Virus genome (UHGV): UHGV-1583584
DNA length: 11,684 nt
DNA from: a virus
Reading direction: 5' to 3' (one strand)
A model generated the notes under the pieces. The model had not been told where the DNA came from. It saw only the letters and a list, made by a program, of their open reading frames with translations, and made no database searches. Shown here in pieces: positions 1,642-8,539 of this stretch. The position numbers and the translations under genes are program-made. The number at the start of each line of letters is the position of its first letter. Position 1 is the first letter of the stretch.

Positions 1642-1926
1642 TCAACCCGCCTCCTTCTGAACATAACGGTTATAAATCAGTCCCTGAGGGCCATAAGGAA
1701 GCGGGATGTGCAACTCCTCTGGTTCAGAAACTATCCATTCCCCGGCCATCTCCGCTGGAGAGGTAATGATAAGTTGTTTGCTAATAAAAGGACCACTCCT
1801 CTCAACAACAAGCTTACCATCTTCATTAATAAAAGCTTGGATGTCAGGTGTGCTTCCACACTTGGTGATGCAGCGTTTGAACATTTTGTGTCCCCCCATT
1901 TTATGGACGGGGTAATTATAACACAT
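1642..1926 (-). CDS. Hypothetical small protein (accessory ea region). Probable true start is the internal Met at 1884 (about 80 aa), which is preceded by GGGGGA.
   Basis: Minus-strand ORF of 94 codons with no competing long ORF on the same strand. It is not lambda Ea8.5, whose sequence as I recall it starts MSINELESEQKDW. No SD precedes the first ATG; an SD-like GGGGGA lies 6 nt before the third Met (MFKRCITKCGSTPD...). Confidence 0.5.
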   Translation of the reverse strand: MCYNYPVHKMGGHKMFKRCITKCGSTPDIQAFINEDGKLVVERSGPFISKQLIITSPAEMAGEWIVSEPEELHIPLPYGPQGLIYNRYVQKEAG

Positions 1927-2010
1927 TGAAATATAGTAATATTTGACGTAGATTTCTTTTGATCTATAAGCGATTTTTTAATGCTTTTAAGTTATAAATA
2001 CTTGTTTTCA

Positions 2011-2586
2011 TCACCCATCTTGCTGCGGTGCTACTATTGAAAAGTACTCACACCCTTTAGCCCAAATAGTTTTGATAGTTGTCCAACTGACTGGAACCTT
2101 GATTTCGATTCTTCCGCTGCCGTCACAAGTTTCGCAATCATCATCACCAAAGCATTCCGGGCAGCTTATAAACGTAGTTTCTGAAAATTCACCGGATAGC
2201 ACACCCTTAGCGCCGTTCTCAGCGGTTAGTTTCTTCGGCACTATAACCCAACCATCCGGAGTTACCGGAGAATTGCCATTTATATCGAAGTTTGGCTCTG
2301 CGTCCTGAACCAGGAGGATGTAACCATTCTTGGCAGTATCAAGTTCTAACGCCTCGGTGACGGTACCGAAATAGCGATTACCTAAATCCGCATCACAAGT
2401 GCTTACATCAATGGAAACCTCCATGCCTTCGATTAATTCTGGCAAGTTGTAAGTTTGGCTTACAGGTTCTGCTCCCAGTGATGCCAGTGCAATTCGTGCC
2501 AGTTCCATTTGTTCGCCACGAGTAAGCCCGTTTTCAAGCGGATTTTTAATGAACAATTCAATACGTTCTTTGGTAATAGTGGTCAT
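2011..2586 (-). CDS. Hypothetical 191-aa protein with a C-terminal cysteine cluster (CPEC-x5-CETCDGSG, a DnaJ-like CxxCxGxG zinc-ribbon motif)
   Basis: ORF with SD AAGGA 5 nt upstream of the ATG at 2586. It lies 10 nt downstream of the stop of the preceding gene (2597), consistent with an operon. The Cys motif is read directly from the translation. Confidence 0.7.
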   Translation of the reverse strand: MTTITKERIELFIKNPLENGLTRGEQMELARIALASLGAEPVSQTYNLPELIEGMEVSIDVSTCDADLGNRYFGTVTEALELDTAKNGYILLVQDAEPNFDINGNSPVTPDGWVIVPKKLTAENGAKGVLSGEFSETTFISCPECFGDDDCETCDGSGRIEIKVPVSWTTIKTIWAKGCEYFSIVAPQQDG

Positions 2587-2596
2587 TTGTTAGTCC

Positions 2597-3352
2597 TTAA
2601 ACTGCTAGTTGCAATTGCATTTCAAAGCGGTCGCGTTGTTCACAATACGCAAGAGAACCAGGGCTATTGTGTGCCTCAATCCGTTCTACCATTAATGCTG
2701 CGCGTGTCTCTTTACTTGCAGGTGCATAAGCCCCAGACCAGGCTTTATCAATACCGATGTTTCGAGCGACGTTCGTACTATCTGCGCTGGCTAAGGGTAA
2801 TTTTGTGAATATCAGCGGATTTAACATGCGCAATCCATGTAGTTTCGTAACCAGCTGACCATGCCCATCAACAATGTGACGAATCAGGTCTTTCATTCTG
2901 GCTACCGCAAGAGTTGGGCGCTTTACGTCATAGTCGCCACAACTACCGATAGCCACTCGCGGAAACTCATTGCACAAATGAATAAATCGCTCGTCACTTT
3001 CATTCATGTGCCACACTGGAACGCCAGCTAGTTTTCCGTGAGGCCACTCATTCAGAAGCGCATCATTTTCCTCCTCTCCGCCATCAATAACATCCGGGAT
3101 AATGGCAAAATCGAATCTTGGGTGATTCTTCCAGCGAGCAACAAACTCGTAGTAATCGCTCCAGTCGATTTTGTTTTTGCCAGCTGCTTTCCAGGCGGTG
3201 AATGCACCGTTGTCCAGCGCGAACGACTGACAGTATTCAGCCGCGAGATTGATCTGGCCTGAATGCGCAAAACTGATAAACGCATGTCGCCCTTTCCATG
3301 CTCTCATTGCGCACGTATCAGGAGTAATAGGCCCACCGTGGTAGTGAATCAT
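2597..3352 (-). CDS. Putative TGT-fold (tRNA-guanine transglycosylase-like) protein, candidate DNA 7-deazaguanine transglycosylase (DpdA-like). Function is tentative.
   Basis: The six-frame ORF is 2597..3394, but the strong SD AAGGAG sits 7 nt upstream of the Met at 3352 (MIHYHGGPITPDT...), one nucleotide after the Ea22-like stop. A co-linear motif pattern resembles TGT family landmarks as I recall them from E. coli Tgt: ALDNGAF vs LTDSGGF, IIPDV vs MIFDE, VAIGSCG vs AVGGLAVG, KLHGLR vs YLMGVG, ADSTNVARN vs FDCVMPTRNARN. There is no CxCxxC...H zinc subdomain. Similarity is motif-level and not verified by search. Confidence 0.6.
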   Translation of the reverse strand: MIHYHGGPITPDTCAMRAWKGRHAFISFAHSGQINLAAEYCQSFALDNGAFTAWKAAGKNKIDWSDYYEFVARWKNHPRFDFAIIPDVIDGGEEENDALLNEWPHGKLAGVPVWHMNESDERFIHLCNEFPRVAIGSCGDYDVKRPTLAVARMKDLIRHIVDGHGQLVTKLHGLRMLNPLIFTKLPLASADSTNVARNIGIDKAWSGAYAPASKETRAALMVERIEAHNSPGSLAYCEQRDRFEMQLQLAV

Positions 3353-3353
3353 C

Positions 3354-3761
3354 TCACTCTCCTTTGATGCGAATGCCAGTAGCGCGGATTGCATCGATGA
3401 CTTCAGAAACTTTGTATGCCATTACCGTTTGGTAATCATCGTGAAAATCTGTTCGATGAAGCATGCTGCTACGTTCCGGGAGCAGTATTTCCCGCGCTTC
3501 CAGTTCTGCAATGCGCTTTTTTGCTGCTTCCAGTTCATCCAGTAATTCCAGCACGGTAGCCGGATTAGCCTTGGCAACAAAATCCCGGACTGGCTTACAA
3601 TCAATCTCCGCAATGGGTTGATACGATGTGTAGCCATGCTGTCTTGTATAACTACCGTGACGAATAACGAAAAAATCACCATTTATTTTTTTAGCCTGCC
3701 ACTTATCTTCACCGGCTTTCTCTGCCGCTTCACGCAGTGCCTGAGAGTTAATTTCGCTCAC
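3354..3761 (-). CDS. ea22: Ea22-like protein (mosaic: lambda-like N- and C-termini, different central region)
   Basis: The N-terminus MSEINSQALREAAE and C-terminus GIRIKGE match lambda Ea22 as recalled. The central part differs and the protein is shorter (135 aa vs 182 aa in lambda). Confidence 0.8.
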   Translation of the reverse strand: MSEINSQALREAAEKAGEDKWQAKKINGDFFVIRHGSYTRQHGYTSYQPIAEIDCKPVRDFVAKANPATVLELLDELEAAKKRIAELEAREILLPERSSMLHRTDFHDDYQTVMAYKVSEVIDAIRATGIRIKGE

Positions 3762-3979
3762 GTCGAACCTCTCTGTTTACTGATAAGCTCCAGATCTTGC
3801 TGGCAACTGGCACAAGTCCGACAACCCTGAACGGCCAGTCGTCTTCGTTCATCTATCGGATCGCCACACTCACAACAATGAGTGGCAGATATAGCCTGGT
3901 GGTTCAGGCGGCGCATTTTTATTGCTGTGTTGCGCTGTAATTCTTCAATTTCTGATGCTGAATCAATTATGTCTGCCAT
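3758..3979 (-). CDS. TraR/DksA-family C4 zinc-finger protein (lambda orf73-like)
   Basis: The 73-aa product has CCECGDPIDERRR...CRTCASCQ, a four-cysteine TraR/DksA-type zinc finger. The surrounding DNA matches lambda in this region as recalled. Its stop overlaps the Ea22-like start in an ATGA arrangement. Confidence 0.8.
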   Translation of the reverse strand: MADIIDSASEIEELQRNTAIKMRRLNHQAISATHCCECGDPIDERRRLAVQGCRTCASCQQDLELISKQRGST

Positions 3980-4561: not shown

Positions 4562-4722
4562 ACAGCTCCCCGTTTATTATTTATCTCCTCAGCCAGCCGC
4601 TGTGCTTTCAGGGGATTTCTGATAACAGAAAGGCCGGGAAATACCCAGCCTCGCTTTGTAATGGAGTAGACGAAAGTGATCGCGCCCACCCGGATATTAT
4701 CGTGAGGATGCGTCATCGCCAT
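4534..4722 (-). CDS. Small lambda early-region protein (orf60a-like), immediately downstream-adjacent to exo
   Basis: 62-aa ORF overlapping the exo stop region, in the same arrangement as lambda orf60a. Confidence 0.65.
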
Positions 4723-5393
4723 TGCTCCCCAAATACAAAACCAATTTCAGCCAGTGCCTCGTCCATTTTTTCGATGAACTCCGGCACCATCTCGTCAAAA
4801 CTCGCCATGTACTTTTCATCCCGCTCAACCACGACATAATGCAGGCCTTCACGCTTCATACGCGGGTCATAGTTGGCAAAGTACCAGGCATCTTTTCGCG
4901 TCACCCACATGCTGTACTGCACCTGGGCCATGTAAGCCGACTTTATGGCCTCGAAACCACCGAGCCGGAACTTCATGAAATCCCGGGAGGTAAACGGGCA
5001 TTTCAGCTCAAGGCCATTGCCGTCACTGCATAAACCATCGGGAGAGCAGGCGGTACGCATACTTTCGTCGCGATAGATGATCGGGGATTCAGTAACATTC
5101 ACGCCGGAAGTGAATTCAAACAGAGTTCTGGCGTCGTTCTCGTACTGTTTTCCCCATGCCAGCGCCTTAGCATTAACTTCCGGAGCCACACCGGTGCAAA
5201 CCTCAGCCAGCAGGGTGTGGAAGTAGGACATTTTCATGTCAGGCCACTTTTTTCCGGAGCGGGGTTTTGCTATCACATTGTGAACTTCTGAAGCGGTGAT
5301 GACGCCGAGCCGTAATTTGTGCCACGCATCATCCCCCTGTTCGACAGCTCTCACGTCGATTCCGGTACGCTGCAGGATAATGTCCGGTGTCAT
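4713..5393 (-). CDS. exo: Lambda exonuclease (Red alpha), 5-prime to 3-prime dsDNA exonuclease
   Basis: The 226-aa product [40 protein letters not shown]... is essentially identical to lambda Exo as recalled. Confidence 0.97.
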
Positions 5394-6175
5394 GCAGCCA
5401 CCTTCTGCTCAGTGGCTTTCTGTTTCAGGAATCCAAGAGCTTTCACTGCTTCGGCCTGTGTCAGTTCTGACGATGCGCGAATGTCGCGGCGAAATATCTG
5501 GGAACAGAGCGGCAATAAGTCGTCATCCCATGTTTTATCCAGGGCAATCAGCAGAGTGTTAATCTCCTGCATGGTTTCATCGTTAACCGGAGTGATGTCG
5601 CGTTCCGGCTGACGTTCTGCAGTGTATGCGGTATTTTCGACAATGCGCTCGGCTTCATCCTTGTCATAGATACCCGCAAATCCGAAGGCCAGACGGGCAC
5701 ACTGAATCATGGCTTTATGCCGTAACATCCGTTTGGGATGCGACTGCCACGGCCCCGTAATTTCTCTGCCTTCGCGGGTTTTGAATGGTTCGCGGCGGCA
5801 TTCATCCATCCACTCGGTAACGCAGATCGGATGATTACGGTCCTTGCGGTAAATCCGGCATGTACAGGATTCATTGTCCTGCTCAAAGTCCATGCCATCA
5901 AACTGCTGGTTTTCATTGATGATGCGGGACCAGCCATCAACGCCCACCACCGGAACGATGCCATTCTGCTTATCAGGAAAGGTGTAAATTTCTTTCGTCC
6001 ACGGATTAAGGCCGTACTGGTTGGCAACGATCAGTAATGCGATGAACTGCGCATCGCTGGCATCACCTTTAAATGCCGTCTGGCGAAGAGTGGTGATCAG
6101 TTCCTGTGGGTCGACAGAATCCATGCCGACACGTTCAGCCAGCTTCCCAGCCAGCGTTGCGAGTGCTGTACTCAT
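5390..6175 (-). CDS. bet: Bet (Red beta) single-strand annealing protein
   Basis: The 261-aa product [48 protein letters not shown]... matches lambda Bet as recalled. Its start overlaps the exo stop region. Confidence 0.97.
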
Positions 6176-6180
6176 CCGTT

Positions 6181-6477
6181 TTATACCTCTGAATCAATAT
6201 CAACCTGGTGGTGAGCAATGGTTTCAACCATGTACCGGATGTGTTCTGCCATGCGCTCCTGAAACTCAACATCGTCATCAAACGCACGGGTAATGGCTTT
6301 TTTGCTGGCCCCGTGGCGTTGCAAATGATCGATGCATAGCGATTCAAACAGGTGCTGGGGCAGGCCTTTTTCCATGTCGTCTGCCAGTTCTGCCTCTTTC
6401 TCTTCACGGGCGATCTGCTGGTAGTGACGCGCCCAGCTCTGAGCCTCAAGACGATCCTGAATGTAATAAGCGTTCAT
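6181..6477 (-). CDS. gam: Gam, RecBCD inhibitor (98-aa short form)
   Basis: [60 protein letters not shown]... matches lambda GamS as recalled. Upstream DNA resembles lambda but the reading frame for the 138-aa long form is not open here. Confidence 0.95.
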
Positions 6478-7239: not shown

Positions 7240-7620
7240 TCAGTCAGCCCAACCTGATTTCGAGTTTATTTGGGTTTCTGACATTGTGTATTTCTTAATC
7301 GTGTCATCGTTAAAAAGAATAGTAAGTTCTTTTTTCGTACCGTTCGTTCCATTATGGAATAATCCATAGAATGGAATAAAAGTGGTGCCATTAACTTTTA
7401 CTTTTGCAAAGGCGTACTTCCAGATCTCGTTTCCACTGTCAGTATATGAAACAGCATCAGGAGAACCAAAGTAAGATTTAACCTCATTCTTGGTTGTTTT
7501 ACCTTCCTGAAGTTTAGACTGGACACTAATTTCAGTTTCATTTTTGAGTTGCTGGTTGCCTGAAGAAGCACACCCAGCCAATACAGATGCCATCATGGCA
7601 GCGATTAGGATTTTTCTCAT
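7240..7620 (-). CDS. Prophage-encoded lipoprotein (signal peptide with lipobox LAGC); possible BamE/SmpA-OmlA-like fold; candidate lysogenic-conversion or superinfection-exclusion factor
   Basis: The N-terminus MRKILIAAMMASVLAGC has a canonical lipobox, with Ala at +2 after the Cys (no Asp inner-membrane retention signal). The mature part has a pattern resembling BamE (GxTKxEV...GSP...WxY...LTILFxxDxIKxY), which is a motif-level impression only. The gene is AT-rich relative to its neighbours and is followed by a terminator. Confidence 0.8.
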   Translation of the reverse strand: MRKILIAAMMASVLAGCASSGNQQLKNETEISVQSKLQEGKTTKNEVKSYFGSPDAVSYTDSGNEIWKYAFAKVKVNGTTFIPFYGLFHNGTNGTKKELTILFNDDTIKKYTMSETQINSKSGWAD

Positions 7621-7849: not shown

Positions 7850-8539
7850 TTAACCATGCTTCCTGTACGTCTGCGGCATGCTTCCAATGACCTTACCGAA
7901 TATGAACACCCGGTTCATCTCGTCTTTCTCGATCGGGTCCCACGGCGAGTAGCTCTTGTTATCAGAGATAACCAGCAGCTTATCCTTCATCATTTGAAGA
8001 CGTTTTACATGGGCAGTGTCGTCGTACAGAAACGCATAGATGCCATCACCGTCGAAAGATTTAACAGTGATATCAACGAACAGCAGGTCACCTGGTTCGA
8101 TCGTCCCTGACATGCTGTCACCTCGCACGTTAATGATGCGGATATTTTCCGCCTTCCTGCCATCGAACATGTGACGAGCATCGTCAAACGAGTACTCAAC
8201 CGAGCGTAGAACTTCTACAAACTCACGGTTGATTACACCTGGCCCGGCACTGACTTCTATATCAAGAACGTCAATTTTGAAGTATTTGGAATGGCTGACA
8301 GTTGATTGTATTGGTTGCACTGTACTGTCTGACATATTTCCAACGCCAGAAGATAACCATTCTGCGCGCACACCCAAAGCGTTCGCGATCTCCACGATTT
8401 TAGTTGTTTGGTTAGCTTTCCCTGTTTCGATTTTCTGAATAGCAGCCTGGCTAACCCCGACCAAATCCCCAAGCGCCTTTTGTGTAAGGCCTCGCGCTAA
8501 TCTGGCTTCTTTAAGTCTTTCTGAGAGTGTTGTTTTCAT
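7850..8539 (-). CDS. cI: CI-type prophage repressor (N-terminal XRE-family HTH, C-terminal LexA/S24-like autopeptidase domain)
   Basis: The N-terminus LKEARLARGLTQKALGDLVGVSQAAIQKIETGK is a typical HTH. The C-terminus contains GDSM (Ser nucleophile motif) and VKRL (Lys), with a candidate Ala-Gly cleavage site in EVSAGPG. It is transcribed divergently from the cro-like gene. The sequence differs from lambda CI, so this is a different immunity type. Confidence 0.9.
   Translation of the reverse strand: MKTTLSERLKEARLARGLTQKALGDLVGVSQAAIQKIETGKANQTTKIVEIANALGVRAEWLSSGVGNMSDSTVQPIQSTVSHSKYFKIDVLDIEVSAGPGVINREFVEVLRSVEYSFDDARHMFDGRKAENIRIINVRGDSMSGTIEPGDLLFVDITVKSFDGDGIYAFLYDDTAHVKRLQMMKDKLLVISDNKSYSPWDPIEKDEMNRVFIFGKVIGSMPQTYRKHG

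Follow-up and report, generated by a model that had tools for sequence, protein, structure and literature searches.

Among the phages that encode DpdA, a branch of the tRNA-guanine transglycosylase (TGT) superfamily, Hutinet et al. (2019; PMC6884629) distinguished a third group of 76 phages, which carry DpdA but not the genes for G+/preQ0 synthesis and which include a gamma-proteobacterial cluster of 'singleton' DpdAs. Supplementary Data 1 of that work lists the proteins of SPN3UB (YP_007011024), SfI (YP_009147480) and HK106 (YP_007151699), together with 7-11, SE131, SEN1 and BTP1 (PMC6884629). The virion DNA of phage 7-11 was reported to contain 50 dADG per 10^6 nt, ∼0.02% of G (PMC6884629), and the DNA of MED16 contained dADG at ∼0.13% of G, a level that conferred no appreciable protection from the restriction enzymes that were tried (PMC8306585). 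Phage DpdA2 enzymes, when expressed alone in E. coli, insert host-made preQ0/preQ1 in DNA, an activity that disappears when queD is mutated (PMC10516641). A gene of the singleton type was identified on the minus strand of the virus genome UHGV-1583584, a stretch of 11 684 nucleotides which is referred to here, at its full length, as the window. The gene encodes a protein of 251 amino acids and is followed on the same strand by a gene for a 191 amino acid protein with a zinc ribbon and by a small gene. In the initial annotation of the window these three genes were considered to be a new candidate system for DNA modification and anti-restriction.

The 251 amino acid protein belongs to the 'DpdA-only' family of phage proteins, which had been catalogued before, and represents no new kind of system. 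It is 92% identical to the orthologue from Salmonella phage SPN3UB, 68% to that from SfI and 36% to those from HK106 and 7-11, proteins which are named queuine tRNA-ribosyltransferase in RefSeq phage records. The novelty that had been claimed for the locus was overstated, as the SPN3UB, SfI and HK106 orthologues were all listed as DpdA-only in PMC6884629; a literature search found no paper specifically on the lambdoid members of the family. SPN3UB gp54, 7-11 gp032 and the proteins of SEN1 and BTP1 (Salmonella phages), SfI gp34 and HK106 gp29 (Enterobacteria phages) and MED16 gp38 (Pantoea phage) belong to the same family, the members checked being ∼235–265 amino acids in length, with no zinc motif in the four sequences inspected. 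The phages that carry them have, like the window, no preQ0/G+ genes, and in the lambdoid members checked the gene lies in the early or nin regions. No substantive difference from these singletons was apparent; the window gene is an E. coli prophage allele for which only the local neighbours differ. This allele is 98.4% identical to the copy in the Stx1a-converting phage Stx1a_EH2115.

The assignment to the DpdA-only group follows from the lack of linked synthesis genes. As the initial annotation had indicated, no folE, queD, queE or queC was present among the open reading frames (ORFs) of the 11.7 kb window, in which all ORFs of annotated size were otherwise accounted for. The same four genes were also missing from the neighbour clusters that were frequent in a comparison of 88 loci, each with an orthologue of at least 60% identity and drawn from IMG/VR, reference phages and genomes.

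The TGT-fold, DpdA-family identity first proposed from sequence motifs was upheld by profile and structure comparison. The protein fell into phrog_887 ('queuine tRNA-ribosyltransferase', E 6.7e-104), and in a family search among representatives of 90%-identity clusters 7854 of the 8000 scored candidates matched at E ≤ 0.001, the family amounting to 1528 clusters at 50% identity. Alignment of the family profile with hhalign gave a probability of 100% (E 4e-45) for the DpdA of Salmonella phage 7-11 and of 100% (E 3e-53, 38% identity) for that of Pantoea phage MED16. The validated DpdA of Pseudomonas phage Iggy was aligned at 98.9% probability (E 2.3e-17) over 152 columns, which span the LDxGAF motif, the KxHG strand and the DS motif of the nucleophile, and was also matched by tblastn (E 1e-6). 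An AlphaFold2 model built with 61 diverse homologues predicted an alternating beta/alpha barrel with a pLDDT of 92.6 and a pTM of 0.89; an earlier model, from only 28 sequences of ≥65% identity, had reached a pLDDT of 67. The modelled structure is a (beta/alpha)8 TIM barrel closest to TGT-family structures. Foldseek comparison with BFVD yielded 27 matches below E 1e-3, of which the named ones were phage 'queuine tRNA-ribosyltransferase' proteins; comparison with the PDB returned generic TIM barrels only, and the best structural match of the protein was Cap10.

Several searches were negative. Scans of the 251 amino acid protein against Pfam, NCBIfam and PADLOC gave no match, and none of the 61 family members was matched by Pfam; these negatives are uninformative, because the validated Iggy DpdA likewise escapes the Pfam TGT model. 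Nothing above noise came from the PDB, whether searched by sequence or by profile, and hhalign of the family profile with the single E. coli TGT sequence gave no match, the distance being too great for a comparison of a profile with a single sequence. The product is best described as a minimal DpdA of the phage branch within the TGT superfamily, one that has no zinc site.

The motifs ALDNGAF (containing D47), IIPDV (D87), AIGSCG, LHGLR (H172) and ADSTNVARN (D191) are present in the protein, and the alignment to TGT from which the fold had been suspected holds. D47-x3-F51 corresponds to D89-x3-F93 of E. coli TGT, D87 is colinear with D143 and D191-x5-R197-N198 is colinear with D264-x5-R270-N271. 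On this sequence alignment the protein retains both the catalytic Asp pair and the base-recognition Asp of the superfamily. D47 is predicted to be the general acid/base, acting with F51, D87 to recognize the base and D191 to be the nucleophile, while H172, S192 and R197-N198 are further candidate catalytic or substrate residues; the counterparts in bacterial DpdA are Asp95/Phe99, Asp130 and the nucleophile Asp256 (PMC10164549). In a 61-sequence alignment that reaches down to 31% identity, D47, H172, D191 and S192 show no substitution, and conservation at N48, D87, E118 and R175 is 90% or higher. As had been noted, the zinc-binding subdomain is absent: the five Cys residues (14, 41, 127, 138 and 240) form no CxCxxC motif, and none is conserved across the family. 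The CxCxxC site is also missing from the Iggy, 7-11 and HK106 proteins. Because the validated Iggy DpdA has none, the missing site neither disqualifies a phage DpdA nor defines one.

The three minus-strand ORFs were recovered at the positions first assigned to them, and their strong PHROG matches (E 6.7e-104, 1.4e-41 and 3e-51 for the 251 amino acid, 191 amino acid and small proteins respectively), with the exact sequence of each protein occurring on hundreds of public contigs, indicate that they are real genes and not chance ORFs. The first gene could be extended to an ORF of 265 codons starting at 3394, a form for which there is no homologue support; all homologues of the protein begin MIHYHGGP, and the start was therefore placed at the ATG at 3352. 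An AAGGAG ribosome-binding site lies within the 3′ end of the Ea22-like gene, the TGA of which (3354–3356) is separated from the ATG by a single nucleotide. A gap of 10 nt lies between the TAA (2597–2599) and the ATG of the 191 amino acid gene at 2586. These details were as initially described. The dN/dS against the Salmonella allele is 0.022, which places strong purifying selection on the protein.

The protein was also compared with other TGT-fold systems. The catalytic core is homologous to that of Iggy DpdA (DpdA1, also found in CAjan and 9g), which inserts dPreQ0 at GA, and both are candidates for post-replicative modification of DNA. Iggy DpdA, however, has 312 amino acids, is clustered with folE-queD-queC-queE and modifies ∼16% of G, whereas the window protein is shorter, 26% identical to it and without pathway genes, and the modification in its relatives is ≤0.13%. 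The bacterial DpdA of S. Montevideo (PDB 7ui4) has 413 amino acids, four insertions and a CXCX2CX22H zinc site, none of which is shared, and it depends on the ATPase DpdB and is part of a dpd cluster of several genes. Neither a DpdB-like gene nor a dpdC-K cluster was found, the neighbours being Ea22-like, TraR-like and HkaE-like proteins. Bacterial Tgt, at 375 amino acids, differs in its zinc subdomain and tRNA-binding elements, and was not matched in sequence by HMM or by hhalign with the single E. coli sequence. Cap10 of type IV CBASS (PDB 9ntn) acts with a CD-NTase whose N-terminus bears a deazaguanine installed by Cap9. It is 9% identical to the window protein and was missed by the PDB sequence searches.

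By analogy with these enzymes, the 251 amino acid protein probably replaces a few guanines in DNA with a host-made 7-deazaguanine base, and the favoured reading of the locus, held with reasonable though not strong confidence, is of a stand-alone DpdA that leaves sparse marks in phage DNA. The gene lies within the pL early-left operon, as first suggested, and would be a single-gene cassette (moron), transcribed with the delayed-early pL genes during lytic growth or induction, its start being translationally coupled to the Ea22-like gene. If the chemistry resembles that of TGT and DpdA, D191 would attack C1′ of the target deoxyguanosine with departure of guanine, D47 serving as acid/base, and a free 7-deazaguanine would resolve the covalent intermediate. 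As the phage has no synthesis genes, the base would be host-made, from the queuosine pathway (FolE-QueD-QueE-QueC), as preQ0 or its precursor ADG; such a supply is plausible because the DpdA2 enzymes alone insert host-made preQ0/preQ1. The expected outcome would be sparse, probably sequence-specific dADG/dPreQ0 marks and no bulk replacement, and these may protect certain sites against nucleases of the host. The general anti-restriction role that had been attributed to the locus was overstated, given relatives with dADG at 0.02% and 0.13% and the lack of protection in MED16 (PMC8306585). In both 7-11 and MED16 the sole deazaguanine gene is a member of this family, and the dADG data for the two phages are correlative only.

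Other substrates and directions of reaction were considered. An active TGT-fold enzyme might have as its substrate, instead of bulk phage DNA, tRNA or a 7-deazaguanine conjugated to protein or in some other way, as Cap10 does, and could then, for example, work against a defence of the host or adjust translation. The pair H172/D191 is similar to H226/D248, the catalytic pair of Cap10 (bioRxiv 10.1101/2025.04.06.647259). No CD-NTase, Cap9 (QueC-like) or effector gene was found in the window or related loci, and PADLOC gave no match. This explanation is rather unlikely. A non-DNA or non-protective role more generally is credited with a similarly small share of probability, because Cap10 is the best structural match and the DNA modification in the relatives is minute. 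It is also conceivable, at about the same low level, that the zinc-less, pathway-less clade as a whole writes a few site-specific marks for regulation, packaging or defence evasion, or that, like Cap10, it transfers or removes a deazaguanine on a substrate other than DNA. The enzyme might instead work mainly in reverse, or as a glycosylase, to remove or exchange 7-deazaguanine or damaged guanine, by erasing host Dpd-type marks or in repair. TGT-type chemistry is a reversible base exchange, bacterial DpdA has been assayed as guanine exchange (PMC10164549), the phage has no donor-base pathway, and the gene lies among the recombination and repair functions exo, bet and gam, with RusA in other phages. 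No direct evidence for such an activity was found, however; dADG is present in 7-11 and MED16 DNA and the predicted base-recognition residues are kept as in inserting enzymes, which makes removal or repair improbable as the main activity. That the gene is a decaying or non-functional relic of a mosaic region, as a nearby theta pseudogene and insertion sequences in some genomes might imply, is extremely improbable given an intact ORF, active-site residues that are invariant across a family of this breadth, the low dN/dS and an exact protein sequence present on 425 contigs.

The proposal that the DpdA-like, zinc-ribbon and small proteins form one dedicated three-component system draws on their adjacency on one strand within one operon, the first two being only 10 nt apart, and on an arrangement of 1901 bp that is nearly identical in 30 complete E. 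coli genomes. A zinc-ribbon C-terminal module with 73–78% identity also occurs 3′ of DpdA in three more distant loci (L033, L037 and L081). Yet the DpdA allele itself was detected in 201 of 5426 complete E. coli genomes (∼4%), 171 of which were without the full arrangement. In the loci examined elsewhere the downstream gene ends in DUF551, a dATP/dGTP pyrophosphohydrolase, EaA or other modules. The small gene was found in two of the 88 loci, the zinc-ribbon C-terminus in at most seven and the full trio in two. The zinc module and the small gene also exist together without DpdA (loci L011 and L012, and again in company with the theta pseudogene), residues 1–114 of the 191 amino acid protein recur in HK620, which carries no DpdA, and the small gene is set apart by an A+T-rich spacer and a lower G+C content. 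A three-component system, the central claim for this locus, is thus largely refuted by comparative genomics and can be given very little probability. Co-occurrence is poor and the parts occur without DpdA, and so the three genes are considered to be neighbours through lambdoid mosaicism and not a system. The genes around the DpdA-like gene vary from phage to phage.

Across the 88 loci the neighbours of the DpdA-like gene fell into 243 clusters, the commonest being Ea22-like proteins and proteins with an HkaE-type N-terminus. The 191 amino acid protein belongs to PHROG 60 (unknown function), and its residues 1–114 are 96% identical to HkaE of HK620. The C-terminal ∼90 amino acids contain, in the CPEC-x5-CETCDGSG sequence reported initially, one CxxC...CxxCxGxG zinc knuckle; PGAP labels this part 'molecular chaperone DnaJ'. 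Altogether 472 protein clusters contain this C-terminal module, in fusion with an Ea22, DUF550 or PF04447 domain or without any Pfam domain. The 191 amino acid protein is therefore a mosaic early-region protein of the Eaa/HkaE type and not a dedicated partner. Its N-terminus of ∼45 amino acids was considered as a DpdA-binding adaptor, and this was rejected since the same N-terminus, with the remainder of residues 1–114, is present in the HkaE of DpdA-less HK620.

Within the close allele group (L007–L010 and L016–L029) the gene starting 10 nt after the DpdA stop shares an N-terminus of ∼40 amino acids, MTTITKERIELFIKNPLENGLTRGEQMELARIALASL in most loci. This shared N-terminus runs in frame into a zinc ribbon, DUF551, a dATP/dGTP pyrophosphohydrolase or an EaA C-terminus, in ORFs of 122–454 amino acids. 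PGAP splits these continuous ORFs, including the 191 amino acid gene, into a partial pseudogene and an internally started gene. Such consistent in-frame joining suggests a genuine modular family of proteins that have the N-terminal domain in common.

RefSeq calls the small gene from a start at 1884, giving 80 amino acids, while the ATG at 1926 would give 94; PHROG 9613 (unknown function) aligns from residue 13 of the longer form. The spacer between the small gene and the 191 amino acid gene is ∼85–125 nt. The G+C content over 1601–2200, which covers the small gene and the spacer, is 0.39–0.40 against ∼0.46–0.50 in the flanks, consistent with a separately acquired insert. When the minus strand there was scanned for a promoter of the small gene, none with a sigma-70 consensus was detected.

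Beyond the small gene lies a feature that had been missed, a theta (HolE/P1 Hot-like) pseudogene with an in-frame TGA at 1512–1514; as annotated, it starts within the 3′ end of the small gene. Relative to the E. coli theta and P1 Hot sequences, the stop presumably replaces an Arg codon just before the conserved EQPE motif. RefSeq flags the same 'internal stop' in theta in three genomes inspected, and the stop-containing allele is for this reason taken to be widespread and not a one-off mutation. The ea region is hypervariable, and the 191 amino acid gene, the 80 amino acid gene and the theta pseudogene are carried in it as mosaic passengers, independently of the DpdA-like gene.

Two clusters resembling DNA adenine methyltransferases, one MT-A70-like with a DPPW motif and one like phage Dam, adjoin the DpdA-like gene in 16 of the 88 loci, the assignment having been made from their sequences. 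In MED16 a gene annotated as N-6-adenine methyltransferase lies six genes upstream of that for DpdA, and on plasmid pDEC12A-1 an annotated DNA methyltransferase lies two genes upstream of the DpdA-like gene. The loci concerned are L073, L082–L084, L090, L092–L095 and others, together with L010 (4097–4858). This is a loose association, and it is consistent with a DNA-modification neighbourhood.

The ORF list and family searches identify the window as the early region of a lambdoid prophage, and near-identical DNA is present in E. coli chromosomes. The features are collected in Table 1.

Table 1. Features of the lambdoid prophage early region in the window (positions count from its first nucleotide)
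Feature	Position	Strand	Basis or remark
int	108-890	minus	position and ORF translation
xis	868-1086	minus	position and ORF translation
Intrinsic terminator	1136-1117	minus	followed by xis and int
orf55, lambda p35-like	1126-1293	minus	
Intrinsic terminators	1363-1343, 1332-1313	minus	terminator scan and sequence; tandem pair, closes the early-left block 3′ of the theta pseudogene
theta (HolE/P1 Hot-like) pseudogene	1383-1664	minus	
Small protein gene	1642-1884 (80 aa), or to 1926 (94 aa)	minus	
HkaE-type zinc-ribbon mosaic gene, 191 aa	2011-2586	minus	
DpdA-family (TGT-fold) gene, 251 aa	2597-3352	minus	
Ead/Ea22-like gene	3354-3761	minus	Pfam PF13935, E 2.6e-17
AAGGAG ribosome-binding site of DpdA-like gene	3359-3364	minus	read in the sequence
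TraR/DksA-like gene	3758-3979	minus	
Three small lambda-type ORFs	between TraR/DksA-like gene and exo	minus	
exo	4713-5393	minus	
bet	5390-6175	minus	
gam	6181-6477	minus	
kil	beyond gam	minus	
Repressor gene	7850-8539		
cro-position gene, cII-like, O, P, ren-like		plus	cro, O and P by position/translation; others by family searches

Between the early-left kil side and the repressor gene an island of low G+C content (0.37–0.40) contains a minus-strand gene (7240–7620) for a predicted lipoprotein of 126 amino acids, with a signal peptide ending in LAGC and membership of PHROG 3135 (unknown function), which looks like a moron of the lysogenic-conversion type. Insertion sequences interrupt the same prophage block in some E. 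coli genomes (L001, 1125–3740; NZ_CP120568.1), with the IS66-family ISCro1 between orf55 and the theta pseudogene and IS2 inside the block. These interruptions indicate that the prophages are decaying in part of the population.

The DpdA call made from the sequence was right, the three-gene system was wrong, and the claims of novelty and of anti-restriction went too far. The locus serves as a caution that adjacency in the lambdoid ea region does not equal functional linkage. As the family has already been catalogued, the remaining value of the finding is practical. The allele is carried by lambdoid prophages of E. coli, with O121, O111 and O157:H16 strains among the hosts, and by a Stx1a-converting phage. 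An inducible lambda-like prophage of E. coli, in a host with a fully tractable queuosine pathway, is probably the easiest place in which to establish the role of the singleton DpdAs.

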